Shown: positions 226 to 58,077 of the stretch, piece by piece
Numbering within the stretch: the stretch's first letter is position 1
How the letters are laid out: the number at the start of each line of letters is the position of its first letter
Source: Candidatus Levyibacteriota bacterium
GTDB taxonomy: Bacteria; Patescibacteriota; Microgenomatia; Levybacterales; UBA12049
DNA: 64,000 bases
Assembly (NCBI GenBank): GCA_030651475.1
Contig: JAUSEW010000029.1
Coordinates: forward strand, 21,777-85,776
Reading direction: 5' to 3'
Program-made: the position numbers and the translations under genes
The notes under the pieces: model-generated
The model's database searches: none
Told to the model about the DNA's origin: nothing
What the model saw: the letters and a program-made list of their open reading frames with translations, nothing else

Positions 226-597
226 TTATTTGACCAAAATATGGTCTTCTGGTCTCCATCCGGGTTTTGATAAACAACTTACCCAAGTTTCGTTTCCTTT
301 CGCAGAATGAATTTCGCCTGGCTTTATAATAAATTTATCTCCTTTTTTTAATTTATATTTTCTCTTACCTAGCGTAATAATTAAATCGCCTCGTAGGATT
401 TCATAGAATTCAGTAGCCTTTTTATGATAATGAGGTTTTGAATCGTCAATGATGGCAATAGCAATGCCATCTTCTTCGTTATTTTTCGCCGGTTCAATCT
501 CGCAGATAATTTCTGTGGGATTTTCGGGCGGATTTAGAACGATTGTTTTATTAGGATACTTCTTTTTTAATTCAGAAACAACTTTCCTAACATTCAT
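226..597 (-). CDS. cupin-domain protein
   Basis: 123 aa; cupin-like two-motif pattern (HYHKKATEFYEILRGD ... KPGEIHSAKG) recognised by eye. Confidence 0.45.
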   Translation of the reverse strand: MNVRKVVSELKKKYPNKTIVLNPPENPTEIICEIEPAKNNEEDGIAIAIIDDSKPHYHKKATEFYEILRGDLIITLGKRKYKLKKGDKFIIKPGEIHSAKGNETWVSCLSKPGWRPEDHILVK

Positions 598-751: not shown

Positions 752-1195
752 TTAGAAGGCTTTTCTCTTTACTCTTTTTTGCTTCTCATGTTCTTGTTTT
801 TGATATACCCAATTGCTTCCTTTAGATTTTGGAATTTTTGTCAAAACATCTTCGACTTTTTGCCAGAAATTATCTTGATTCTCCATAGCCAGAATCCTTT
901 CTACGACTTTTTTATATCCTTTGCCTGAATATTTGAGCCGTAAACTTACAGAGGCAATGGTTGATGGTGTAACTCGTAAAATTTCTGCAATCGCAGGATA
1001 ATTATGTCCTTTCGCAAGAAGCACGGCTATAGCAAGTCTTTTACTCAACATTATTTTTTCAACCGGGGATAGAAAATCTTCTAAGAAATCTTCGATATCT
1101 TCATTATTTTTTAAACGAGATATCGTAGATTTGAAAATTTCAAACATTCTTTTCTCTACGTCTTTATGTATTGGATATTTAGAAACTTGTGTCAT
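752..1195 (-). CDS. TrpR-like YerC/YecD-family DNA-binding protein
   Basis: 147 aa; segment FLEDFLSPVEKIMLSKRLAIAVLLAKGHNYPAIAEILRVTPSTIASVSLRLKY resembles Bacillus YerC / Trp-repressor fold by eye. Confidence 0.6.
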   Translation of the reverse strand: MTQVSKYPIHKDVEKRMFEIFKSTISRLKNNEDIEDFLEDFLSPVEKIMLSKRLAIAVLLAKGHNYPAIAEILRVTPSTIASVSLRLKYSGKGYKKVVERILAMENQDNFWQKVEDVLTKIPKSKGSNWVYQKQEHEKQKRVKRKAF

Positions 1196-1221
1196 ACTCT
1201 AATGATACGTATCATTAGAGT
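1196..1221. repeat. 26-bp perfect palindrome ACTCTAATGATACGTATCATTAGAGT abutting the start codon of the TrpR-like gene, copy 2 of 3
   Basis: read directly; identical 18-bp core to copy 1; 25 of its bases identical to the copy at 30104-30128. Confidence 0.95.
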
Positions 1222-1297
1222 GCATGTCAAGAGTAGGATTTAGAGTTAAATTAAAAAATAAAATATTAATGCAGACTAGTCTATAGGAGGTTAAATA

Positions 1298-25653: not shown

Positions 25654-26808
25654 ATGGATTTTCGTGCTTATGTAAGTGTTGATAAGAGACGTAAGGCAGT
25701 AGAAGATAATTTAAAAGTTAACCTTTCTAATATTGGCAATTATTCCTTTGATTCAAAGCTGGCATCTTCAAGAAATTGCGAGAATATGATTGGAGCAGTT
25801 CAAATTCCATTAGGGATTGCTGGGCCTTTAAAAATAAAAAGCGATTTCTCTGAAGATGAAGTTTTTTTACCGTTAGCTACAACAGAAGGGGCTTTAGTTG
25901 CATCTGTAAATAGGGGATGTAAGGTAATTACTCTAAGCGGAGGAGTAACTGTTAATAGCCAAAGGATAGGAATAACAAGAGCTCCGGTTTTTGTGGTGAA
26001 TAATCAAAAAGAAGGTAAAAAGTTCGTAGAGTGGGTAAATTCTAGCTTTAAACTTCTTAAGCAAGTTACGGAATCCACTTCATCTCATCTGACCCTTTTA
26101 GATATAAAATCTACCTTCATGGGAAGAAATGTTTATTTAAGATTTAGATTTGATTCACAAGATGCAATGGGCATGAATATGGCAACAATTGCGTGTACCA
26201 AAGCGGCATCTTTTATAGAAAAAGAAACAAAAGCGCGATTAGTGGCGATTTCCGGGAATATGTGTGTTGATAAAAAGCCTAGTTTATTAAATTTTATTGA
26301 AGGAAGAGGGTATTCCGTTTCAGCTGACATATTAATCCCACGAAAAATTGTAGAATCTACGTTAAAGTCTAAAACAGAAAGTATCGTCGAAGTCGCGCAG
26401 CGCAAGCTAATGTACGGGTCTTTACTTTCGGGCAGTGTTGGGGCAAATGCTCACTATGCAAATATTTTATCAGCTATGTTTATAGCGACTGGACAAGACG
26501 CAGCGCATGTGGCAGAATGTTCTGTAGGTATAACAACAGCGGAAGAAATAAAGGGTGATCTCTATGTCTCAATATATCTACCCGATCTCGTGGTAGGAAC
26601 AGTTGGCGGAGGAACATCTCTTGAAACCCAAAAAGAAGCATTATCAATTATGGGAATTAGTGGTGGCAATAATGGAAAAAATGCAAGAAAATTAGCAGAA
26701 ATTATTGGAGGAGCTGTGCTCGCAGGAGAGATTTCCTTATTAGCATCTTTAGCGGATAATTCTTTAGCATCAGCTCATCGGAAATTAGGGAGGGGAGAAA
26801 AAATATAA
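25654..26808 (+). CDS. hmgA: 3-hydroxy-3-methylglutaryl-CoA reductase (class-I-like catalytic domain)
   Basis: 384 aa; ENMIG, DAMGMNM, GTVGGGT signatures. Confidence 0.9.
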   Translation: MDFRAYVSVDKRRKAVEDNLKVNLSNIGNYSFDSKLASSRNCENMIGAVQIPLGIAGPLKIKSDFSEDEVFLPLATTEGALVASVNRGCKVITLSGGVTVNSQRIGITRAPVFVVNNQKEGKKFVEWVNSSFKLLKQVTESTSSHLTLLDIKSTFMGRNVYLRFRFDSQDAMGMNMATIACTKAASFIEKETKARLVAISGNMCVDKKPSLLNFIEGRGYSVSADILIPRKIVESTLKSKTESIVEVAQRKLMYGSLLSGSVGANAHYANILSAMFIATGQDAAHVAECSVGITTAEEIKGDLYVSIYLPDLVVGTVGGGTSLETQKEALSIMGISGGNNGKNARKLAEIIGGAVLAGEISLLASLADNSLASAHRKLGRGEKI

Positions 26809-26812
26809 AATT

Positions 26813-27850
26813 ATGACAGGAATTGTTGGATACGGAACCTATATTCCGAAATATCGTCTTAGACTTTCTGAAATTGCCAAGGTGTGGGGAAAGGATACGG
26901 CCGAAATAGAAAATGGACTGCGTATTTCTGAAAAAGCTGTTCCTGGTTTTGATGAAGATGCCGTAACTATGGGAGTGGAAGCATCAAAAAAAGCCATTGC
27001 TATGGCAGGTATTAATCCTTCTTCTCTGCAAAGCGTATATTTTGGTTCAGAAAGTCATCCTTACGCTGTTAATCCTTCTTCAACAACACTTGGAGAATAT
27101 TTGGGTATAGGAAATAATTATTTTGCGGCAGATTTGGAGTTTGCCTGCAAAGCCGCTACAGCCGGCATGCAGATAACAGTGGGATTAATAGATAGCAAAA
27201 ATATAAAATATGGTTTGGTTGTGGGAAGTGACACTGCTCAAGGTAAACCTCACGATGCGTTAGAATATACAGCAGCGAGTGCCGCATGCGCGTACATTTT
27301 GGGGAATAAGGAAACAGAAATTATTGCAAAAATTCTGGAAATGTCATCCTTCTCATCCGACACTCCTGATTTCTGGAGAAGGGATGGAGCCAAATATCCA
27401 TCCCATTTTGGAAGATTTACTGGCGAACCGGCGTATTTTACTCACATAATTCAAGAGGGGAAAAATTTACTTGCAAAAAGCAAACTTAAGCCTGAAGATT
27501 TTGACTACTGTGTTTTTCATATGCCTAACGGTAAATTTCCAAGAGTTGTTGCTAAAAAACTTGGATTTACCTCCGGGCAACTAGCACAATCTCTTATAGT
27601 TGATAAAATTGGCAATCCGTATTCAGCATCTGCATTGATGGGATTAGCAAGCGTCCTAGATATTGCAAAACCAAAACAAAAAATATTCTTTGTTTCTTAC
27701 GGATCGGGTGCAGGATCAGATGGTTTCATATTTGAAACTACGAGTAGAATTTTACAAAAACAAAAAAAGATAATTACAGTCTCAAAGCAAATGGAAGATA
27801 AGATTTATATTTCCTATCCAACTTATTTAAGACAAACACACGTCATATGA
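26813..27850 (+). CDS. hydroxymethylglutaryl-CoA synthase (archaeal / short type)
   Basis: 345 aa; thiolase-fold HMGCS pattern, N-terminal GIVGYGTYIPKYRL. Confidence 0.85.
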   Translation: MTGIVGYGTYIPKYRLRLSEIAKVWGKDTAEIENGLRISEKAVPGFDEDAVTMGVEASKKAIAMAGINPSSLQSVYFGSESHPYAVNPSSTTLGEYLGIGNNYFAADLEFACKAATAGMQITVGLIDSKNIKYGLVVGSDTAQGKPHDALEYTAASAACAYILGNKETEIIAKILEMSSFSSDTPDFWRRDGAKYPSHFGRFTGEPAYFTHIIQEGKNLLAKSKLKPEDFDYCVFHMPNGKFPRVVAKKLGFTSGQLAQSLIVDKIGNPYSASALMGLASVLDIAKPKQKIFFVSYGSGAGSDGFIFETTSRILQKQKKIITVSKQMEDKIYISYPTYLRQTHVI

Positions 27851-28995
27851 AAATAAATATATTGGGAACTCATGCAACGAAATTTGGAGAGTTATGGAAT
27901 ATATCTCCGCGTGCATTAGCAAGGGAGGCAATGGAAAATGCATTAAATGCATCCGGCTTGAAAGCATCTGATATAGACGCTTTATATGTAGGGAATATGT
28001 TGTCCGGAATTTTGGGTAATCAAGCGAATTTAGGATCCTTGCTCGTTGAAGAGCTGGGTGTTCAAGTTCCCGCTTTTAGAATAGAAGGCGCTTGCGCTTC
28101 AGGAGGTTTAGCTTTGCATAACGCGATTAACAGTCTTAAAGCGGGGCAATATAAAACAGTTTTGGTTTTAGGTATAGAAAAAATGACAGATCATAGTCAA
28201 GATGAGATTACAAATGCTTTAATGTCTGCGGGATCGGACGAAGAGCGTTTGGCTGGTGCAACATTTCCCGGAGTATATGCGCTAATGGCCCAAGCCTATA
28301 TGCAGCAATATAAAGTAAGCGAAGAAGATTTGGCTTGCGTTTCCGTAAAAAACCATTATCATGGAACGCTAAATCCCAAAGCTCAATTCCAATTTCCCAT
28401 AACCATAGCCGATGTTATGAGAAGCGCAAAGATTGCTGATCCGCTCAAACTTCTAGATTGTTCTCCGATTTCAGATGGGGCTGCGGCAGTTGTTATTACC
28501 AGCGAAAATATTCTTAAAAAAAATAAGAAACCCATACAGATTATTGCAAGCGAAGTAGCCACAGACACGCTTAGTCTTCATGACAGAAAATCTTTTACCA
28601 GTTTGAGTGCCGTTGTTGAAGCATCTACGAAAGCGTATGGAAAAGCAGGATTAAAACCTTCGGATATTGATGTTGCTGAAATTCATGATTGTTTTTCAAT
28701 TTCAGAGGCGATTGCAACAGAAGATTTAGGTTTTTCTAAAAAGGGCGAAGGTGCAAGGGATATTGCCAAAGGCAAGAGAACGCTTTTTAAAGGGGATATT
28801 ATTTGTAATCCATCGGGAGGACTAAAAGCCTGCGGTCATCCTGTTGGAGCAACAGGCATAAAGCAGATAGTCGAGCTTACGGAACAGCTTAGAGGAGAAG
28901 CTGGGAAACGTCAGGTTGAAAAAGCAAGGATTGGTTTGGCTCACAATGTCGGGGGAAGCGGTACGATAGCGGCAATTCATATTTTACAAAAATAG
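27847..28995 (+). CDS. acetyl-CoA C-acetyltransferase (archaeal-type thiolase)
   Basis: 382 aa; thiolase pattern with active-site Cys (EGACASGG), HDCFSI, NPSGG. Confidence 0.85.
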   Translation: MKINILGTHATKFGELWNISPRALAREAMENALNASGLKASDIDALYVGNMLSGILGNQANLGSLLVEELGVQVPAFRIEGACASGGLALHNAINSLKAGQYKTVLVLGIEKMTDHSQDEITNALMSAGSDEERLAGATFPGVYALMAQAYMQQYKVSEEDLACVSVKNHYHGTLNPKAQFQFPITIADVMRSAKIADPLKLLDCSPISDGAAAVVITSENILKKNKKPIQIIASEVATDTLSLHDRKSFTSLSAVVEASTKAYGKAGLKPSDIDVAEIHDCFSISEAIATEDLGFSKKGEGARDIAKGKRTLFKGDIICNPSGGLKACGHPVGATGIKQIVELTEQLRGEAGKRQVEKARIGLAHNVGGSGTIAAIHILQK

Positions 28996-29000
28996 ATATT

Positions 29001-29303
29001 ATGATAACATCACCGGTAAAACTTTGGAGAAGGCAAAAAAATACATCAGCTCTTATAGGGAAAAAAGGGAAAATTTTGCAGTGGACAATTATTCGGGTTC
29101 CGGCTAAATCTTTTATTGATCAAGCGCCGTACCCTGTTGTAATTGTGAAAATGCAAAATGGAGAAAATATGATTGGGCAATTAGTTGACTGGCAGGAAAA
29201 AGATTTGATAGTAGGGAAAGACGTTATTGCTGTTTTGCGAAGATTGAGAACGGAAGGGAAAGAAGACGTTATCTACTACAACATTAAATTCAAGCCTCTA
29301 TGA
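29001..29303 (+). CDS. DUF35-family OB-fold protein (thiolase/HMGCS partner), lacking zinc-ribbon
   Basis: 100 aa; OB-fold pattern; no cysteines; position right after thiolase as in archaea. Confidence 0.6.
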   Translation: MITSPVKLWRRQKNTSALIGKKGKILQWTIIRVPAKSFIDQAPYPVVIVKMQNGENMIGQLVDWQEKDLIVGKDVIAVLRRLRTEGKEDVIYYNIKFKPL

Positions 29304-30367
29304 AAAAAATTCAAGTTTCTGCCCCGGGTAAGTTACATTTATTGGGCGAACACGTGGTAGTACACGGAAAACCAGCTATTATTGCAACGGTAAATAAACG
29401 CTGTTTTGTAGAAATTACTCCCCGAAAAGATAGGAAAATAGAAATTATTTCTGAAAATTTGAAAGCAAGTAAGATAGTTACGGAAAAAGAAATTATTGCA
29501 AAAACTAAAGAAGCGCAAACAAAATGGGAAACTTATATAAAAACTAATGAGATATCTCTTCTTAAGTCTATAGCTTCAGATCCCTTAGACTTTCCGATTA
29601 TTGTTATTGGTGAGACTTTAAAATATCTTAACAAAACTTTACCATTTGGTTTTACTCTATCAATAAAATCAGATATTCCAATTGGTTCCGGGATGGGATC
29701 TTCTGCGGCACTTAGTGTTTCTATAGCTGGTGCCATGTATTTATTGTTTAATAAAAATTTAGATAAAGAAGTTATAAATGAAATTGCCTATCTTGCAGAA
29801 CAAAAGAAACACGGCCTTCCGTCCGGAGGAGACAATGTTGCTAGTTGTTTTGGAGGAATGGTTTGGTATCGTAAAGAAACACCAGACTTAAAAATTATCA
29901 AACCAATTCCTTTTTCCTTCCCCCGAAAATTGGCAAAGAATTTTGTCGCCATTCATACAGGTATTCCAATTGAATCAACAGGCGAAATGGTAAGTATCGT
30001 ACGGGGACTATATCAAACAAAAAAAGATTTTGTTGAAAATATTTTATCAAGCCAGGAAAAACTAACACGAGAGCTTCTATCTGCAATAAAGGATGGCGAC
30101 GACACTCTAATGATACGTATCATTAGAGCGGGAGAGAAAAACCTTGAAGCGTTAGGGGTTGTAGGAAAAAAGGCACAAGCTATAATTAGGGAAATAGAAA
30201 AGTTAGGAGGAGCGGCAAAAATATCTGGAGCAGGAGGTATTAAGAATGGGTCGGGAATGCTTCTTGCTTACCATAAAACACCAGTAGCTCTTGATGAAGC
30301 TTGTTTGCAATTTAAACTTACGAATAGTAAAATAGCGCTTGGAGACGAGGGCTTAAGACAGGAGTAA
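29300..30367 (+). CDS. mvk: GHMP kinase, mevalonate kinase-like
   Basis: 355 aa; APGKLHLLGEHVVV N-terminus, PIGSGMGSSAA motif 2; contains 24-bp palindrome copy 3. Confidence 0.75.
   Translation: MKKIQVSAPGKLHLLGEHVVVHGKPAIIATVNKRCFVEITPRKDRKIEIISENLKASKIVTEKEIIAKTKEAQTKWETYIKTNEISLLKSIASDPLDFPIIVIGETLKYLNKTLPFGFTLSIKSDIPIGSGMGSSAALSVSIAGAMYLLFNKNLDKEVINEIAYLAEQKKHGLPSGGDNVASCFGGMVWYRKETPDLKIIKPIPFSFPRKLAKNFVAIHTGIPIESTGEMVSIVRGLYQTKKDFVENILSSQEKLTRELLSAIKDGDDTLMIRIIRAGEKNLEALGVVGKKAQAIIREIEKLGGAAKISGAGGIKNGSGMLLAYHKTPVALDEACLQFKLTNSKIALGDEGLRQE
30105..30128. repeat. 24-bp perfect palindrome CTCTAATGATACGTATCATTAGAG inside mvk coding sequence, copy 3 of 3
   Basis: read directly; 25 nt (30104-30128) identical to 1196-1220. 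Confidence 0.95.
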
Positions 30368-30371
30368 AATT

Positions 30372-31226
30372 ATGGTACCCATAAACTATGGAGGAAGAAT
30401 TGAAAGTAGAGGTCCTGAAACCTATAGGAGTCAGTCCTTATTAGACACTATTTTTCAAGCAACTGGTTTAGAAAATTTTCAAGGAAGTGCAGTTGTTATC
30501 GATTTAATGTCGGGTCCTGGAGGAATAGCGCTTAATCTTCAGAAAAAAGCCTCCAGACATTCTTATGCTGTTCTAGATTATGATCAGGAACAATTAGCCA
30601 AAATAGGGGAGCACGAGCCCGTAAATAAGATATTGGCTGATGTAAGGAATGTATCTTCTGTTGTTAAAGGAGAATCTGTAGATATCGCAACTGCTCGTTA
30701 TGGGATTAAGGATATACCTCAAGGGCAACAGCTTCAAGCGCTCAAAGGTATTAATGAGATATTGAGACCAGGAGGAGTTTTTGTGCTTACAGATATGATT
30801 TCCTTGGAAGGTGAAGGATTGCAGAGGTGGCTTAACATACAACATAGTCAAAAGCAGCAGCTTAGCGGAAGAGAAATTGAAAAAGAGGGAGAGTGTTATA
30901 TCCCGACAGAAAAAGAGTGGCTAGCGATGTTAAAAGAAGTGGGTTTTGAAGCGGAAGTTTTTGGTTATTATACAAGTCCTATTTCTACTGGGGATTGGCT
31001 TACGGGAAATCAATTTGGTAATCCAAAATCACCGGAAGCGGCCAGGAAAAAAGCTATTATGGACGAGATAATAATGAACGCTCCAGAAGGTGTGAAAAAA
31101 GCGTTTAATGTGCGACAAGGAGTGAATGGTATGGAAATTGATTATCCAGTTGTTATAATAAGAGCAGTTAAGAAAGTAGCAGAGTCTGGTTTGCCTACTG
31201 CTGGTGATTTATATGCCGCAAGCTAA
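30372..31226 (+). CDS. class I SAM-dependent methyltransferase
   Basis: 284 aa; motif I VIDLMSGPGGIA, motif post-I ILRPGGVFVL. Confidence 0.7.
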   Translation: MVPINYGGRIESRGPETYRSQSLLDTIFQATGLENFQGSAVVIDLMSGPGGIALNLQKKASRHSYAVLDYDQEQLAKIGEHEPVNKILADVRNVSSVVKGESVDIATARYGIKDIPQGQQLQALKGINEILRPGGVFVLTDMISLEGEGLQRWLNIQHSQKQQLSGREIEKEGECYIPTEKEWLAMLKEVGFEAEVFGYYTSPISTGDWLTGNQFGNPKSPEAARKKAIMDEIIMNAPEGVKKAFNVRQGVNGMEIDYPVVIIRAVKKVAESGLPTAGDLYAAS

Positions 31227-32190
31227 AAAGATTACTGTTTCGGCGCCGGGGAAATTAATGCTTTTAGGTGAGCATGCTGTTGTCTATGATCATCCCTGTT
31301 TGGTAACTGCTGTTGACCAAAGAATGCGGGCAACTGTTGAAACTTTAGATTCTTTAGAATTCCAATTGGAAGCAGAAGACGTAAAGGTTACCGGTTATAA
31401 AAAGCCTTTAAGCGAAGTTGGTATTGGAGATATCCCAAAGGGCGCAAAATTTGTAGAAATTGCTCTAAAAAATATTAATGAAAAATATCCTCTTAAAACA
31501 GGATTAAAAATAACAACTACATCGGAATTCTCTTCCCAATTCGGATTTGGATCTTCTTCCGCATCAACAGTCTGTACGATAAAAGCGGTTTCTGAAATTC
31601 TGGGTTTGAATTTATCTGAAAAAGCAATTTTTGATCTTGCGTTTAAAACTGTTTTGGATATTCAGGGAAAAGGATCGGGTTTTGATGTGGCAGCTGCGGT
31701 TTATGGCGGAACTCTGTATTTCGTAACCGGCGGAAAAGTAATTGAGCCTTTAGATATTAAATCATTGCCGTTAATTGTTGGATATAGCGGAGTAAAAGGA
31801 GACACAGTAACGTTGATGAACAAAGTAAAAGAGACTTTTGCCGATAAACAAGGTCGTCTTAATCAAATTTATAATAGTATTGAAGCCTTGGTTGATCAAG
31901 CAAAAATGGTACTTCTTAAAAGCGATTGGAAAACATTTGGAGACCTAATGAATCAGAATCAGAAATATTTAAGCGAATTAGGAATTAGTATTGAAAAACT
32001 TGATAATATGATTAAAGGCGCACTTGATGCAGGCGCTTATGGCGCAAAGCTTTCCGGCGCAGGAGGAGGGGATTGTATGATTGCTATTGCGACAGAAGAA
32101 AAAAAACAAGCAGTTGAGCAAGGCATCAATGCAGTTGGCGGAGAAGTTATCAATGTTGGCACCAACGCAGAAGGCGCAAGAGTGGAATAA
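31204..32190 (+). CDS. GHMP kinase (mevalonate / phosphomevalonate kinase; assignment ambiguous)
   Basis: 328 aa; APGKLMLLGEHAVVY, GFGSSSAS, KLSGAGGGDCMIA motifs; 23-nt overlap with upstream methyltransferase gene. Confidence 0.7.
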   Translation: MIYMPQAKKITVSAPGKLMLLGEHAVVYDHPCLVTAVDQRMRATVETLDSLEFQLEAEDVKVTGYKKPLSEVGIGDIPKGAKFVEIALKNINEKYPLKTGLKITTTSEFSSQFGFGSSSASTVCTIKAVSEILGLNLSEKAIFDLAFKTVLDIQGKGSGFDVAAAVYGGTLYFVTGGKVIEPLDIKSLPLIVGYSGVKGDTVTLMNKVKETFADKQGRLNQIYNSIEALVDQAKMVLLKSDWKTFGDLMNQNQKYLSELGISIEKLDNMIKGALDAGAYGAKLSGAGGGDCMIAIATEEKKQAVEQGINAVGGEVINVGTNAEGARVE

Positions 32191-32194
32191 AATT

Positions 32195-32971
32195 ATGGGA
32201 CATGAAGCATCATTAGTGCCAGATATTTTGCCTCCAGGTAGAAGAATTGCTCTGATAGATATAGATGGTACATTGACTGAGGGTCTTACCATCTCTTCGT
32301 TTGCTGAATACTTAGACAATAACGATTCTTTTAATTCATCTTCGTGGGATCATATGCAGGAAGATTTTTCTCGTTATAGCGCCAGCGATCATGGACATGC
32401 TGCTTATGAGCAATTTGCCGTAGATTTAGTATTGCATTATGCTGATGGATTAAGAGACTACAGAGTAAGCGATGTCGAAGCTATGGCTGGCAAGTTTTTT
32501 GTTTCTGTGCAAAGAAATGAGGTTCCTGAATACAGAGTGTATCCATTTTCTCCTCAGCTAGTTCATCTTATGAATAAAATAGGAACAACAATAGCAGTTT
32601 CCGGTTCTCCAGCTGAGTCACTTGCTCCGTTAAAACGCATTCTTAATTTAGGAGATTTAAGAGCTACTGCTATTGGACAAAAGAATGGAATCTATACAGG
32701 AAGAGTAGATATTAATTTGGCATTAGACTCTGAAAAGAAAAAGGTAGTTGGGGAATATATAGCTGAAGATACAGATAGCGCACGCTCTTTTGCTTTTGGA
32801 GATACGATGCATGATTTGCCCATGCTGGAAGCTGTGGGAAATCCTTTTGTGGTTGGAGATAATTCGCATTTACTAGCTGTTGCAAGAAGAAGGGGATGGT
32901 CTATAATTAATTCTGACAATGCTATTGATCAAGTAGCGCAGAGAATAAACACTTTATTTAAGAATACTTAA
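32195..32971 (+). CDS. HAD-superfamily hydrolase, subfamily IB-like
   Basis: motif I IALIDIDGTLTE, motif IV GDTMHDLPML; ATG 32195 chosen because ORF-track start 32081 overlaps upstream gene. Confidence 0.65.
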   Translation: MGHEASLVPDILPPGRRIALIDIDGTLTEGLTISSFAEYLDNNDSFNSSSWDHMQEDFSRYSASDHGHAAYEQFAVDLVLHYADGLRDYRVSDVEAMAGKFFVSVQRNEVPEYRVYPFSPQLVHLMNKIGTTIAVSGSPAESLAPLKRILNLGDLRATAIGQKNGIYTGRVDINLALDSEKKKVVGEYIAEDTDSARSFAFGDTMHDLPMLEAVGNPFVVGDNSHLLAVARRRGWSIINSDNAIDQVAQRINTLFKNT

Positions 32972-33948
32972 TGAAAGCAACTGCAGTAGCCCCGTCAAAT
33001 ATAGCATTCGTCAAATATTGGGGTAAAAAAGACGAAAAGCTTCGACTTCCTGAAAACGGCAGTATCTCCATGAATTTAAATAATCTTCAGACTACAACAA
33101 CTGTTGAGTTTAATAAAGATTTTAGAGAAGACTTAATTATCATTAACGATCAGAAAGAGGAAAATGAAGGAAGCAGAGCTATAAAGCATTTAGATAGAAT
33201 TAGAATTCTTGCAAAAATAAATTACAAAGCAAAAGTAGTAACTAAAAATAATTTTCCTACAGGTACCGGACTTTCTTCATCTGCATCAGGTTTTGCAGCG
33301 TTAACTTTAGCCGGCGCAAAAGCAGCTGGATTAAATCTGTCGGAAAAAGAATTGTCAATTCTTGCAAGACAAGGATCTGGTTCTGCTTGCCGTTCTATTC
33401 CAGGTGGATTCGTAGAATGGTTAGATGGGGATACAAGCGATACATCTTATGGCGTGTCGTTATATCCTAAAAATTATTGGGACATTGTTGATGTGGTTGC
33501 TGTTGTTAGTAAAAACAAAAAAGAAGTTAGCACGACTGAAGGACAAAAATTGGCAAAATCAAGTCCGTTTTTTCCGATTCGTTTAGCAAGAATAAAAGAA
33601 AAAATTAGATTAATAAAACAATATTTGAAGGAAAAAGATTTTAAAAATTTCGGAGAATTGTTGGAAGCGGAAGCATTGGAACTTCATGCAATTATGTTAA
33701 CCTCAACACCTTCGCTTATATATTGGTTGCCGGGAACTTTGAAAGTTATGCATGCTGTTAAAAGATGGAGAGCTGAAGGATTACAAGTTTATTTTACTGT
33801 TAATACAGGGCAGGATATTCATCTGATTTGTCAAAAAAAAGACGTTGAAAAAGTTGTTAAAAAAGCAGAAGAGATATTAGATGTTCAAAAAACAATTGTC
33901 AATTATCCTAGCAAAGGAGCGCATTTAATTTCAGCACATCTTTTTTAA
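32971..33948 (+). CDS. mvaD: diphosphomevalonate decarboxylase
   Basis: 325 aa; SNIAFVKYWGKKDE, GLSSSASGFAAL. Confidence 0.88.
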   Translation: MKATAVAPSNIAFVKYWGKKDEKLRLPENGSISMNLNNLQTTTTVEFNKDFREDLIIINDQKEENEGSRAIKHLDRIRILAKINYKAKVVTKNNFPTGTGLSSSASGFAALTLAGAKAAGLNLSEKELSILARQGSGSACRSIPGGFVEWLDGDTSDTSYGVSLYPKNYWDIVDVVAVVSKNKKEVSTTEGQKLAKSSPFFPIRLARIKEKIRLIKQYLKEKDFKNFGELLEAEALELHAIMLTSTPSLIYWLPGTLKVMHAVKRWRAEGLQVYFTVNTGQDIHLICQKKDVEKVVKKAEEILDVQKTIVNYPSKGAHLISAHLF

Positions 33949-36929: not shown

Positions 36930-37000
36930 GTCGGGGCGCTGAGAATCGAACTCAGACCACATGACCCCCAGCCACGCATTCTACCACTAAACTACGCCCC
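36930..37000 (-). tRNA. tRNA-Pro (anticodon GGG)
   Basis: folded by hand: 7-bp acceptor stem starting C1-G72, T-arm CTGAG-TTCGATT-CTCAG, anticodon loop CTGGGGG with U33 and G37; no encoded CCA. Confidence 0.8.
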
Positions 37001-37068
37001 GTTTTGCAAAGCAGAATCGAATTTGATCTATTGCATTATAACAAAATATTGCTACAATAAACATAATT

Positions 37069-56473: not shown

Positions 56474-57127
56474 CTAAACCGTGAAGAGAGATTTTAAGAT
56501 AGAGAAAGCTTTATTGATATCTTCATCTTGAAAAACTAATGTTAATTCGCGACTCGTCGAAACAATTTCTATTATATTGACGTTTTCCCAGACTAGCGAC
56601 TTTAGAAATGAGTAGATTACGCCTGGTGATCTTGCAGCCTCCTCAGGTAAGTAAATAGTAATAGAAGACAAATTGTCAATGTCGGAAATAATAGTTTCTT
56701 TTTGAAGATAGAGAAGTATTTCTTTTTTTAAACTATCACTTATAATCATCGTCGTTTCAGAAAGCCCTTCGGTTAATGTAAGAAAATGTCGTTTTTTTAT
56801 AGGGTGCACTTGAAAGAAGGTAGAGCAGGATTCATAAAGAGTGTCAGAATTAACCAGAGTTACAAGGGATAGGCGAGAACGGATAGCGATTTCAGGTTGG
56901 GTTTTAAATATATTTTTATAATTGATATTGGGCTTAATCCTATTTTTCAATCTATTGATAGCCATGATTATAGAACTCTGACTCGTTTTTTTTATCAACA
57001 TTTTTTCAATTTCTGGTTTTATATATTTTGCAAGAGCAGAGCTATTTATAATTCCCTTAGCAAAGGCTTCAGTTAAGTAACGAGACCTTTTTATTATTGT
57101 TTCTGTTACCTGAGGTACAGTAACCAT
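56474..57127 (-). CDS. hypothetical protein, possible ACT-like regulatory domains
   Basis: 217 aa; C-terminal beta-alpha-beta-beta-alpha pattern; weak. Confidence 0.25.
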   Translation of the reverse strand: MVTVPQVTETIIKRSRYLTEAFAKGIINSSALAKYIKPEIEKMLIKKTSQSSIIMAINRLKNRIKPNINYKNIFKTQPEIAIRSRLSLVTLVNSDTLYESCSTFFQVHPIKKRHFLTLTEGLSETTMIISDSLKKEILLYLQKETIISDIDNLSSITIYLPEEAARSPGVIYSFLKSLVWENVNIIEIVSTSRELTLVFQDEDINKAFSILKSLFTV

Positions 57128-57243
57128 ATGTTAAAATTTTAACATAATGTATGGGATTTGTCAATAATTTATCAAAATTTGACATCGTTACTAATAAATA
57201 ATATAGTGTTTTTTATGTTCCCCAAGAACAGTTAATTAAAATT

Positions 57244-58077
57244 ATGACAAATTTAAGAGAAAATGGCGTATTAATGGGTGTTGCTGTAGGCGTAAGGCAA
57301 GAATCGTTACTCGGTAAATACGAAGTTAGACCTTATAAGCCTGAAGATGCAATTACAATATATAACGAGCTGGAGGTACCAAATTGGGCACCTTGGCTAA
57401 GGGCATCAGCCGAAACTTTGGCAAAAAGAGCAGAGGTTTTCCCAGATGGGCAGCTTGCTGTATGGGAAGGAAAACGTCCAATAGTTAATATATCTCTATC
57501 TAGGTTTAATTACGATGGAAACCCAGACAACCTTTCCACATGGGATGAACTAATGGGAGTTCCCGCTACGGGCAAAGATACATTTGATCTAAATGGAAAT
57601 GCTTTAGGAATGATGTCAATTAATGTCCATCCAGATTATCAAGGTAAAGGTTTGACAAAAGTTGTAATTGATGCTGTTAAAGATAGAGCAGTTAAATTAG
57701 GCGTAACTCATATAATGGGTTCATTTAGACCGAGTCAGTTTGGCGAATATAGTACCCAGAATCCAAATGCTAGTATTAAAGAATATATTGATAAAAAAAG
57801 AAAAGAAGATAATATGCCTCATGATGCATGGTTAAGAGCATTGACAAAAAATGGCATGAGAATGTTGCGTATAGATGATGCAGCAATGGTAATACCAGAT
57901 GTAACAAGAAGTGAATTTGAAGATTATAAAAAATCATATAAGCCAGAAAAATGGAAACAAATAGCTCCTAGTGTATGGAGATGTGGGGAAACGGGAGTAT
58001 GGTTAGCTGGAGAGAGATCAGCCGTTTATGTCGAAAGTAATGTTTGGGGAATTTTGGACAAAAACGGAACCTCTTAA
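57244..58077 (+). CDS. GNAT-family N-acyltransferase (paralog 2)
   Basis: 277 aa; motif A YQGKGLTKVV; alignable by eye with 55769..56446. Confidence 0.5.
   Translation: MTNLRENGVLMGVAVGVRQESLLGKYEVRPYKPEDAITIYNELEVPNWAPWLRASAETLAKRAEVFPDGQLAVWEGKRPIVNISLSRFNYDGNPDNLSTWDELMGVPATGKDTFDLNGNALGMMSINVHPDYQGKGLTKVVIDAVKDRAVKLGVTHIMGSFRPSQFGEYSTQNPNASIKEYIDKKRKEDNMPHDAWLRALTKNGMRMLRIDDAAMVIPDVTRSEFEDYKKSYKPEKWKQIAPSVWRCGETGVWLAGERSAVYVESNVWGILDKNGTS

Follow-up and report, generated by a model that had tools for sequence, protein, structure and literature searches.

A 28-bp palindrome in a mevalonate kinase gene of a Levybacteria genome as a candidate intragenic operator of a TrpR/YerC-like regulator

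Introduction

Why should a perfect palindrome lie in frame inside a mevalonate kinase gene and recur, base for base, at the start codon of a small regulator gene 29 kb away? The question arises in a 64,000-nucleotide stretch of contig JAUSEW010000029.1 (positions 21,777 to 85,776; assembly GCA_030651475.1, Candidatus Levyibacteriota bacterium), hereafter called the window. Gene regulation in Patescibacteria, also known as the candidate phyla radiation (CPR), is almost unexplored; the organisms are uncultured, and both regulators and intergenic DNA are very scarce in their genomes. The locus offers a concrete pair for study. One partner is a TrpR-like protein, small and highly conserved; the other is a 28-bp site that constrains the codons of essential genes across proteins of about 50% identity. 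An original prediction, made from this DNA, took the palindrome in the kinase gene either for an intragenic operator tying a YerC-like regulator to the mevalonate operon (as a roadblock or as an internal promoter for downstream genes) or for a mobile palindromic insertion. We consider it probable, at roughly 60%, that positions 30103 to 30130 are an intragenic operator which the 147-amino-acid YerC-like regulator would bind and at which it would act as a roadblock. The features on which the argument turns are as follows.

30103 to 30130, no strand: 28-bp palindromic site CACTCTAATGATACGTATCATTAGAGCG in the mevalonate kinase gene, with the in-frame reading (D)TLMIRIIRA
1195 to 1222, no strand: 28-bp palindrome TACTCTAATGATACGTATCATTAGAGTG, presumed auto-operator, abutting the ATG of the YerC-like gene with a 1-base overlap
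720 to 747, no strand: 28-bp palindrome, A/T variant GACTATAATGATACGTATCATTATAGTG, 4 bp past the YerC-like stop codon and 122 bp upstream of the cupin gene
752 to 1195, minus strand: TrpR/YerC(HisR)-like helix-turn-helix protein of 147 amino acids, presumed binder of the palindrome (assigned by PF01371 and fold)
29300 to 30367, plus strand: mevalonate kinase gene (355 amino acids), hosting the site at codons 269 to 276
226 to 597, minus strand: cupin gene, downstream neighbor of the palindrome at 720 to 747

Results and Discussion

Three copies of one palindrome in the window

We compared the window with itself and found that positions 30104 to 30128 (ACTCTAATGATACGTATCATTAGAG) equal 1196 to 1220 base for base, confirming the 25 consecutive shared bases of the original prediction; in inverted reading, the identity extends to 26 nucleotides (nt; 1197 to 1222 against 30103 to 30128). 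The predicted 24-bp core at 30105 to 30128 is indeed a perfect palindrome. Searching the whole window for this core with up to 3 mismatches returned three copies, at 30105 to 30128, 1197 to 1220, and 722 to 745. All three had been called identical, which holds for the first two only, the copy at 722 to 745 having two symmetric base differences (CTATAAT...ATTATAG). None of 100 dinucleotide-preserving shuffles contained a core match at 3 or fewer mismatches. At 24 to 26 bp, the three copies also exceed every other perfect palindrome in the window, and in 50 shuffles the longest was at most 22 bp and usually 14 to 18 bp. The earlier judgment that the palindrome is implausible by chance is therefore upheld by the shuffles and by the recurrence of the site in unrelated genes, described below. 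Across the window, we found no copies with 4 to 8 mismatches to the 28-bp site (28-mer) and no degenerate extra copies or half-site pairs above background.

When about 90 sites from other assemblies were set beside these copies, the actual unit proved to be 28 bp long, at 30103 to 30130, 1195 to 1222, and 720 to 747, with the full motif CACT[C/A]TAATGA-TACGTA-TCATTA[G/T]AGTG. In the kinase copy, position 27 is C rather than T, because the codon there is Ala GCG.

The host gene was assigned as a mevalonate kinase gene. The open reading frame (ORF) at 29300 to 30367 scored 182.7 bits against the equivalog model TIGR00549, above its cut-off of 163.05, and matched the Pfam family GHMP_kinases_N (PF00288); its product is 100% identical to a Candidatus Levybacteria protein named mevalonate kinase. 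The palindrome lies in frame within this gene and encodes TLMIRIIR, as had been proposed.

The kinase copy is not an insertion and is constrained at the codon level

An alignment of 120 kinase orthologues had zero gaps across the eight site residues. Orthologues without the motif show xE(I/L)(I/M)RIIR aligned to TLMIRIIR, and solved mevalonate kinases (the Methanosarcina structure; PDB 6MDE) align through the site with no gap. The orthologue alignment that the original prediction had proposed as a check thus speaks against its own second alternative. We rejected a mobile palindromic insertion tolerated in frame, given the gapless alignments for mevalonate kinase (MVK; 120 orthologues and the structure) and for cysteinyl- and methionyl-tRNA synthetases (CysRS and MetRS).

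Loci found by a DNA pattern carry the palindrome by the way they were selected, and the unbiased test is the DNA of orthologues picked by protein similarity alone. Three such orthologues (P0002, P0009, and P0010; 74 to 80% amino acid identity) all use ACT CTA ATG ATA CGT ATC ATT AGA. Given the peptide and the codon usage of the window, the probability of this codon set is 2.9e-5 per sequence; by the same usage, CTA makes up 8.5% of Leu, CGT 9% of Arg, and ATC 15% of Ile codons. Synonymous positions flanking the site differ among the orthologues. The same eight, partly rare codons are kept while neighboring synonymous sites vary, which therefore points to selection on the DNA itself, and we conclude from these codon comparisons that the kinase copy is maintained by nucleotide-level selection.

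The constraint reaches beyond close relatives. A kinase only 52% identical (L014) has a perfect 28-mer at the same codons, and the site occupies the same codon positions in the orthologues L010, L014, L042, L051, L065, L081, L091, L092, and L098. Kinases of unrelated lineages with these residues and no palindrome, which the original prediction had named as evidence against itself, were not seen: the palindrome is present in all orthologues that have TLMIRIIR, and where it is missing the residues are different. Three kinase variants keep the arms and alter the CpG center, namely L094 (TLMIYIIR, center TATATA), L093 (TTTATA), and L097 (TLMIHIIR, TACATA); intact arms with a changed center are what would be expected if a dimer reads the arms. 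The site is partly decayed in L096. In a neighbor-joining tree of the kinases, built without the motif columns, most of the Levybacteria clade has the motif, although some members have lost it, and it also occurs in two separate distant places (L014/P0076/P0096 and P0070); the tree is rough, and all that it supports is that three or more separate parts of it contain the motif.

It might be supposed that the kinase simply needs TLMIRIIR and that the palindrome is a by-product of coincidence or of convergence at the protein level. In fact, most orthologues already have the similar helix xE(I/L)(I/M)RIIR, so part of the right arm (ATA CGT ATC ATT AGA, encoding IRIIR) is near the ancestral coding. 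However, the exact and partly rare codons are found in the protein-picked orthologues P0002, P0009, and P0010 alike, at a probability of about 3e-5 each, and the same 28-mer stands in unrelated genes and in intergenic DNA and is matched in none of the 100 shuffles. This explanation is effectively refuted.

The presumed binding protein is a divergent paralogue of HisR

The protein encoded at 752 to 1195 scored 45.5 bits against PF01371 (Trp_repressor; cut-off, 27) over residues 20 to 100. Against TIGR02531, the YerC/YecD equivalog, it reached 39.4 bits, just below the cut-off of 42.2, and does not qualify as HisR proper. A 98-amino-acid protein of a related locus (L012) scored 82.7 bits with the same model and has canonical HisR boxes, and so the window protein is best regarded as a divergent paralogue of HisR. 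Its best solved relative is 3G1C, the HisR of E. eligens (E value, 9e-9). An AlphaFold2 model had a mean pLDDT (predicted local distance difference test) of 77.5, with values of 82 to 91 per ten-residue block over residues 11 to 100. The top Foldseek matches of the model were 3KOR, 3FRW, and 3G1C (target-normalized TM-score, 0.71 to 0.82), followed by Escherichia coli TrpR (0.65 to 0.81). As modeled, the protein thus has the all-helical fold of TrpR, together with an extra helical C-terminal part of about 45 residues that is conserved and was modeled at lower confidence. We found 349 homologues of this protein, of which the best 120 are 67 to 100% identical and nearly all exactly 147 amino acids long.

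The palindrome flanks the regulator gene and overlaps its predicted promoter

Both flanks of the 147-amino-acid gene carry the palindrome, with at most 6 mismatches, in every locus in which both flanks are readable (the window, L002, L004, L015, L024, L031, L053, L066, and L068/L089). Distances across these loci are -1 to 17 bp between the upstream copy and the ATG, and 0 to 48 bp between the stop codon and the copy that follows it. In the window, the upstream copy coincides with a predicted promoter.

1202 to 1230, minus strand: predicted sigma-70-type promoter of the YerC-like gene, with -35 box TTGACA at 1230 to 1225, a 17-nt spacer, and -10 box TATCAT at 1207 to 1202 (11/12 matches)

The palindrome at 1195 to 1222 covers the spacer and the -10 box of this promoter, which points to autoregulation. 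The same TTGACA-17/18-TATCAT arrangement with the palindrome was also found in L004, L024, L031, and L066, the -35 box being perfect in all four. The A of the ATG (position 1195) is 7 nt past the -10 box, which implies a leaderless regulator mRNA in the window; conservation of the N terminus MTQVSKYPIHK indicates that this ATG is the true start. The L024 regulator gene differs, its ATG being preceded by a short leader that contains a ribosome-binding site.

At L024, three copies bracket two consecutive genes, and the third forms the same promoter-operator module. The gene there (L024:1506-2627, minus strand) encodes a 373-amino-acid protein with no Pfam match and is bracketed by two 28-mers; it also has a ribosome-binding site and the full TTGACA-17-TATCAT module. 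Among candidate regulon members, it is the clearest one with a normal promoter layout.

Site and regulator also vary in parallel. A regulator of 46% identity (L053) keeps the palindrome core with changes at positions 5-6 and 23-24. A 155-amino-acid YerC-like paralogue of 27% identity (L041:8973-9440) has a different palindrome on both flanks, ACTTTATTACTGTACCGTAATAAAGT and CTTAAATACTGTACCGTATTAAAG (L041:8934-8959 and L041:9451-9474), of the form ACTTTATTAC-TGTACC-GTAATAAAGT, the upstream copy sitting behind a TTGACA box. This palindrome has the same outer ACTYTA/TARAGT at 14-bp spacing as the 28-mer and a different interior. In these few cases, compared at the sequence level, the site and the regulator evidently change together. 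The canonical 28-mer is present at L041 as well, 935 bp upstream of the region of the paralogue, where it abuts an unrelated ORF for a 156-amino-acid methyltransferase-like protein.

Relation to HisR and its operators

HisR (YerC) is a histidine-dependent repressor that binds 20-bp palindromic operators with the consensus cacTTTA-N6-TAAAgtg; its autoregulation is frequent, and binding in vitro was shown for HisR of R. gnavus (Ashniev et al. 2022, PMC9413887). The system described here shares with it the PF01371 family and fold (relatives 3G1C, 3FRW, and 3KOR), a palindrome, here the presumed operator, whose outer CACTCTA is close to cacTTTA, and an operator-like site on the promoter of the regulator itself, as in autoregulated hisR genes. 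The outer 7 nt of the 28-mer (CACTCTA/TAGAGTG) match the HisR half-site at 6 of 7 positions, but the half-sites are 14 bp apart rather than 6 bp, the interior is invariant, and the site is 28 bp long. Moreover, the protein has the C-terminal extension and falls below the TIGR02531 cut-off, many of its presumed sites are intragenic, and the targets in the window are not histidine genes. In relatives, the 28-mer does adjoin his genes (hisG-hisS in L012 and hisF in L048).

No canonical HisR box was found within the window. In L012 and L045, by comparison, a short true HisR gene has two tandem ACTTTA-N6-TAAAGT boxes abutting its ATG, and a 28-mer stands 4 to 9 bp past its stop codon (4 bp in L012, upstream of hisG-hisS). 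Since these true HisR genes carry canonical boxes of their own, the 28-mer is best assigned to the 147-amino-acid paralogue and not to HisR itself, and the two together are best seen as a paralogous system. The 28-mer might also be taken for a tandem-dimer site made of two overlapping 20-bp HisR sites with an 8-bp offset; on inspection, the implied inner half-sites are unlike the outer ones, which makes this less likely.

The true HisR arrangement lies at L012:2826-2866 and L012:3168-3337, with the same region in L055 and L070 and a similar one at L045:3880-4248. The hisG-hisS leader of L012 contains a terminator-like hairpin, caaccgccgaaaggcggttttttt, directly before the hisG ATG, and its sequence suggests an additional attenuator at the RNA level.

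The 28-mer recurs in housekeeping genes of other CPR genomes

Public genomes were scanned with the 18-mer core and metagenomes with the 24-mer, which together gave the roughly 90 sites. Their consensus is (C/T)(A/G)CT(C/A)TAATGATACGTATCATTA(G/T)AG(T/C)(G/A). Although neither search pattern included the outer bases C-A...T-G, most of these sites, which come from independent assemblies, retain them. Four of the 23 genome-scan matches (L003, L011, L016, and L023) have the 18-mer core only, without the outer arms, and are probably due to chance; L019 (5 mismatches to the 28-mer) and L020 have partial outer arms and were excluded from the context table. The matches come from Levybacteria, Roizmanbacteria, Curtissbacteria, and other metagenome-assembled genomes (MAGs) of Patescibacteria. 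Copy number is low, each of eight contigs of 100 to 370 kb appearing only once in the match list. We found neither the palindrome sequence nor a study of a CPR regulon among the papers searched.

About half of the sites are intragenic, always in one of two stop-free frames that read TLMIRIIRV or H(Y/S)NDTYHYS, and orthologues on different contigs share the position of the site. The hosts in relatives, located by orthologous position, are as follows.

CysRS, residue about 117
Arginyl-tRNA synthetase (ArgRS), residues about 100 to 130
MetRS, residue about 379
Further hosts: mevalonate kinase, tRNA-guanine transglycosylase (TGT), GT4 glycosyltransferases, M24 peptidase, ComFC-like protein, and a small methyltransferase-like protein

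Aligned with solved structures, the copies in CysRS, TGT, and MetRS show no insertion, TGT having a 1-residue offset only. The intergenic copies are mostly 0 to 17 bp from a gene end, and their neighbors include genes for 5'-3' exonuclease, MurD, ThyA, HisF (in L048), GatA, CCA-adding enzyme, PdxS, NUDIX and HD hydrolases, and a dCTP deaminase-like protein.

This distribution bears on the possibility of a selfish or recombination palindrome that spread into genes and was tolerated there, resembling either a miniature inverted-repeat transposable element (MITE), a repetitive extragenic palindrome (REP), or a Rickettsia palindromic element (RPE), or else an Xer/dif-like site of 11-6-11 architecture flanking a cassette. 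In its favor, the 28 bp can be divided into 11+6+11 as in dif and pdif; two copies enclose the regulator gene as they would a cassette, and three enclose the two consecutive genes at L024; and within the window every copy is near-perfect, none being partly decayed. However, no length change is seen at the coding sites tested (MVK, CysRS, TGT, and MetRS), and the sites occupy orthologous codon positions across lineages with 52 to 80% protein identity. The copy number is low without a spectrum of decayed copies (three in the window, none at 4 to 8 mismatches), the neighbors are housekeeping genes with no adjacent transposase or recombinase, and a search of IMG/VR viral contigs returned no match to the 18-mer core. 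For Xer/dif, length and symmetry fit on inspection, set against several copies per genome, many of them in essential genes, and no recombinase nearby; recombination at perfect palindromes inside essential genes would cause lethal inversions or deletions. We regard this explanation as very unlikely. The absence from IMG/VR likewise gave no support to a phage origin, and a DNA uptake sequence was discarded, the density being far too low.

The distribution would also suit a chromosome landmark, that is, a few strict palindromes that the YerC-like protein binds for segregation, nucleoid organization, or replication control, in the manner of parS, matS, and the sites of SlmA and Noc. Those sites are often intragenic and beside the gene of the binding protein. 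Low copy number with unusually strict conservation agrees with such a role, as do the intragenic location of about half of the copies, wherever a protein accommodates TLMIRIIRV or H(Y/S)NDTYHYS, the lack of a functional theme among host genes, the copies flanking the gene of the presumed binder, and the loss of the MVK copy without replacement in the operon. But where the palindrome overlaps a promoter, as it does for the regulator gene and the 373-amino-acid gene of L024, the layout is that of a classic operator, and the TrpR/YerC family is known only for ligand-dependent repressors (PMC9413887). On balance, a landmark role seems distinctly unlikely.

An intragenic operator and its possible mechanism

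The kinase gene belongs to a tightly packed operon.

25654 to 33948, plus strand: mevalonate-pathway operon, defined by ORFs, Pfam matches, and synteny with relatives

The gene order is a 384-amino-acid ORF, HMG-CoA synthase-like protein, thiolase, OB-fold protein, mevalonate kinase, S-adenosylmethionine (SAM)-dependent methyltransferase, second GHMP kinase, HAD-like protein, and diphosphomevalonate decarboxylase, the functions of some of these genes being taken from the syntenic loci of relatives. The first gene occupies the slot of HMG-CoA reductase in relatives. The palindrome divides the operon about 240 bp short of the end of the kinase gene.

An operator in this position is supported indirectly, by the overlap of the palindrome with the regulator promoter, the flanking copies, the covariation with the paralogue, the HisR-like half-sites, and the nucleotide-level selection. 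To that extent, the part of the original prediction that tied the YerC-like regulator to the mevalonate operon is supported. Its suggestion of an internal promoter for the downstream genes gained no support, because no -35 box was found in either direction at the kinase copy, where the best match is 3/6 and a promoter scan over the site was empty.

We propose that the 147-amino-acid regulator would bind the copy over the spacer and -10 box of its own gene and so repress itself. The kinase copy arose by base substitutions in a pre-existing amphipathic helix, from (x)E(I/L)(I/M)RIIR to TLMIRIIR, and is kept by selection on the DNA. A repressor bound there would most likely block or slow RNA polymerase within the operon. 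Less full-length kinase mRNA would then be made, and the four genes that follow, for the methyltransferase, the second GHMP kinase, the HAD-like protein, and the decarboxylase, would be expressed at a lower level. Such a roadblock would presumably be active when a co-repressor, the ligand of the regulator, is present.

A nucleic-acid hairpin, as an RNA stem-loop or a DNA cruciform, could instead act without the YerC-like protein and determine where mRNAs end, how stable they are, or how they are processed, for example as a 3' end protector behind genes or as a processing or pause site inside operons. The palindrome is predicted to fold into a stem of 11 to 12 bp closed by a 4-nt loop, with energies of -10 to -15 kcal/mol (-12 to -15 for RNA of the kinase copy) and z-scores of -2.8 to -5.8, and many intergenic copies are 0 to 17 bp from stop codons. 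Positions 5/24 are C:G in 66 sites, A:T in 14, and mixed in 9, and pairing is kept where G10:C19 became A:T (L002) and T6:A23 became C:G (L053). However, it is the sequence and not just the pairing that is conserved, and positions 2/27 do not covary (7 G-T, 10 A-C, and 1 G-C). A terminator scan found no intrinsic terminator at any of the three copies and no T-run after the stem; we accordingly rejected a terminator in spite of the predicted hairpin. Rfam covariance models gave a single match in the window, a tRNA at 36931 to 37001, and none at the palindromes. The upstream copy of the regulator gene lies mostly 5' of the predicted transcription start and hence outside the RNA, and the L041 paralogue with its own palindrome variant argues for a protein-specific site. 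A hairpin element acting alone is thus unlikely.

Several observations weigh against an intragenic operator of the YerC-like protein. The kinase site is absent from close relatives (L095 and P0008, the latter 76% identical and without any trace of it) and from L099 and L100, and in these last two no replacement site was found in the operon or within 10 kb; any control of the operon must then be dispensable and lineage specific. All 28 positions, the center included, are more strictly conserved than in typical operators, and the outer half-sites have the 14-bp spacing against 6 bp in published HisR sites. Some symmetric double changes suit base pairing as well as dimer binding (5/24 overall, 10/19 in L002, and 6/23 in L053). 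The 28-mer also follows the true HisR gene in L012 and L045, so that the pairing of one protein with one site is drawn by analogy. Besides, no clear functional theme unites the host and neighbor genes, even if tRNA-related ones turn up repeatedly, and about half of the copies are in coding sequence without promoter features.

With these points in mind, the operator reading can be widened, tentatively and with more doubt than confidence, to a view in which the conserved 147-amino-acid TrpR/YerC paralogue of Microgenomates (CPR) recognizes a strictly conserved 28-bp palindrome written repeatedly into housekeeping genes, by substitution at orthologous codons, as a global roadblock regulon or as chromosome landmarks. 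Such a genome-wide network of intragenic sites may include the genes for mevalonate kinase, the Cys-, Arg-, and Met-tRNA synthetases, tRNA-guanine transglycosylase, and the glycosyltransferases. To our knowledge, neither an intragenic roadblock regulon nor chromosome landmarks have been described for the TrpR family.

Comparison with known systems and implications

In our analysis, the system resembles a TrpR/HisR repressor-operator pair with autoregulation, the binding of the 28-mer being assumed. As is presumed for the protein modeled here, E. coli TrpR (1TRO and 1TRR) is a small, all-helical, dimeric repressor with a symmetric operator over the -10 box of its own and target promoters; the operator sequences, however, share no similarity with the 28-mer. 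TrpR binds in tandem (entry 1TRR). The intragenic roadblock operators of CcpA (cre), CodY, and PurR resemble the kinase copy in lying within a transcription unit without promoter features. They are expected to hinder elongating RNA polymerase, and they are short and degenerate; we know of none that is conserved base for base across genera or dictates an eight-codon peptide.

Strict DNA words substituted into genes, in frames with a tolerated peptide, are familiar from parS and from uptake signal sequences and DNA uptake sequences (USS/DUS). The copies of parS, too, are few and beside the gene of the presumed binder, although the binder is ParB and not a TrpR-like protein. USS/DUS occur roughly once per kb, against a far lower density here, and some copies of the 28-mer have a promoter-operator layout. 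Palindromic repeats lie within genes in the case of RPE, and bracket a gene in the case of REP around the REP-associated tyrosine transposase (RAYT) and of pdif modules. Unlike the 28-mer, these elements add length, are multicopy, and are linked to a transposase or recombinase, whereas here no insertion or deletion, a low copy number, and no such enzyme nearby were found.

The kinase copy suggests that lipid-precursor synthesis in Levybacteria is under lineage-specific control. The more surprising result is that one 28-bp operator-like word stands in several essential genes across CPR lineages. If the regulator does bind these sites, a minimal genome places operators in coding sequence, and the TrpR/HisR family extends beyond operons of amino acid biosynthesis. 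Some conserved CPR peptide motifs (TLMIRIIR and HYNDTYHYS) would then be dictated by a function of the DNA and not of the protein, and an intragenic roadblock regulon would suit genomes with almost no intergenic DNA.

Additional observations

The second GHMP kinase of the operon (31204 to 32190) is also above the mevalonate kinase equivalog cut-off, with 207.5 bits against 182.7 for 29300 to 30367 and a cut-off of 163, and the TIGR00549 scores do not separate mevalonate kinase from phosphomevalonate (or other) kinase between the two genes. The SAM-dependent methyltransferase gene between them (30372 to 31226) is present also in L092 and L097 and missing from the otherwise syntenic operons of L091, L094, L099, and L100; at its position, L098 has a 134-amino-acid gene without a family match. 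The operon thus carries a variable slot between the two kinase genes. A weak promoter match at 30304 to 30333 is unrelated to the palindrome.

Eight loci titled 'uncultured Gammaproteobacteria' (TPA MAGs; L002, L005, L006, L008, L009, L014, L017, and L022) all carry the 28-mer. One of them, L002, is syntenic with the window (EF-G, cyclophilin, and a close 147-amino-acid YerC-like homologue; E value, 2.9e-81), and from this synteny and the mevalonate kinase operon context of L014, the label looks wrong for at least L002 and L014.

An unrelated 20-bp perfect palindrome, TATGTTAAAATTTTAACATA, occupies 57127 to 57146, beginning at the first base of the ATG of a minus-strand gene (56474 to 57127) in the divergent intergenic region shared with the gene at 57244 to 58077. 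The layout, with an operator-like palindrome on the start codon, is the same, presumably for another regulator.

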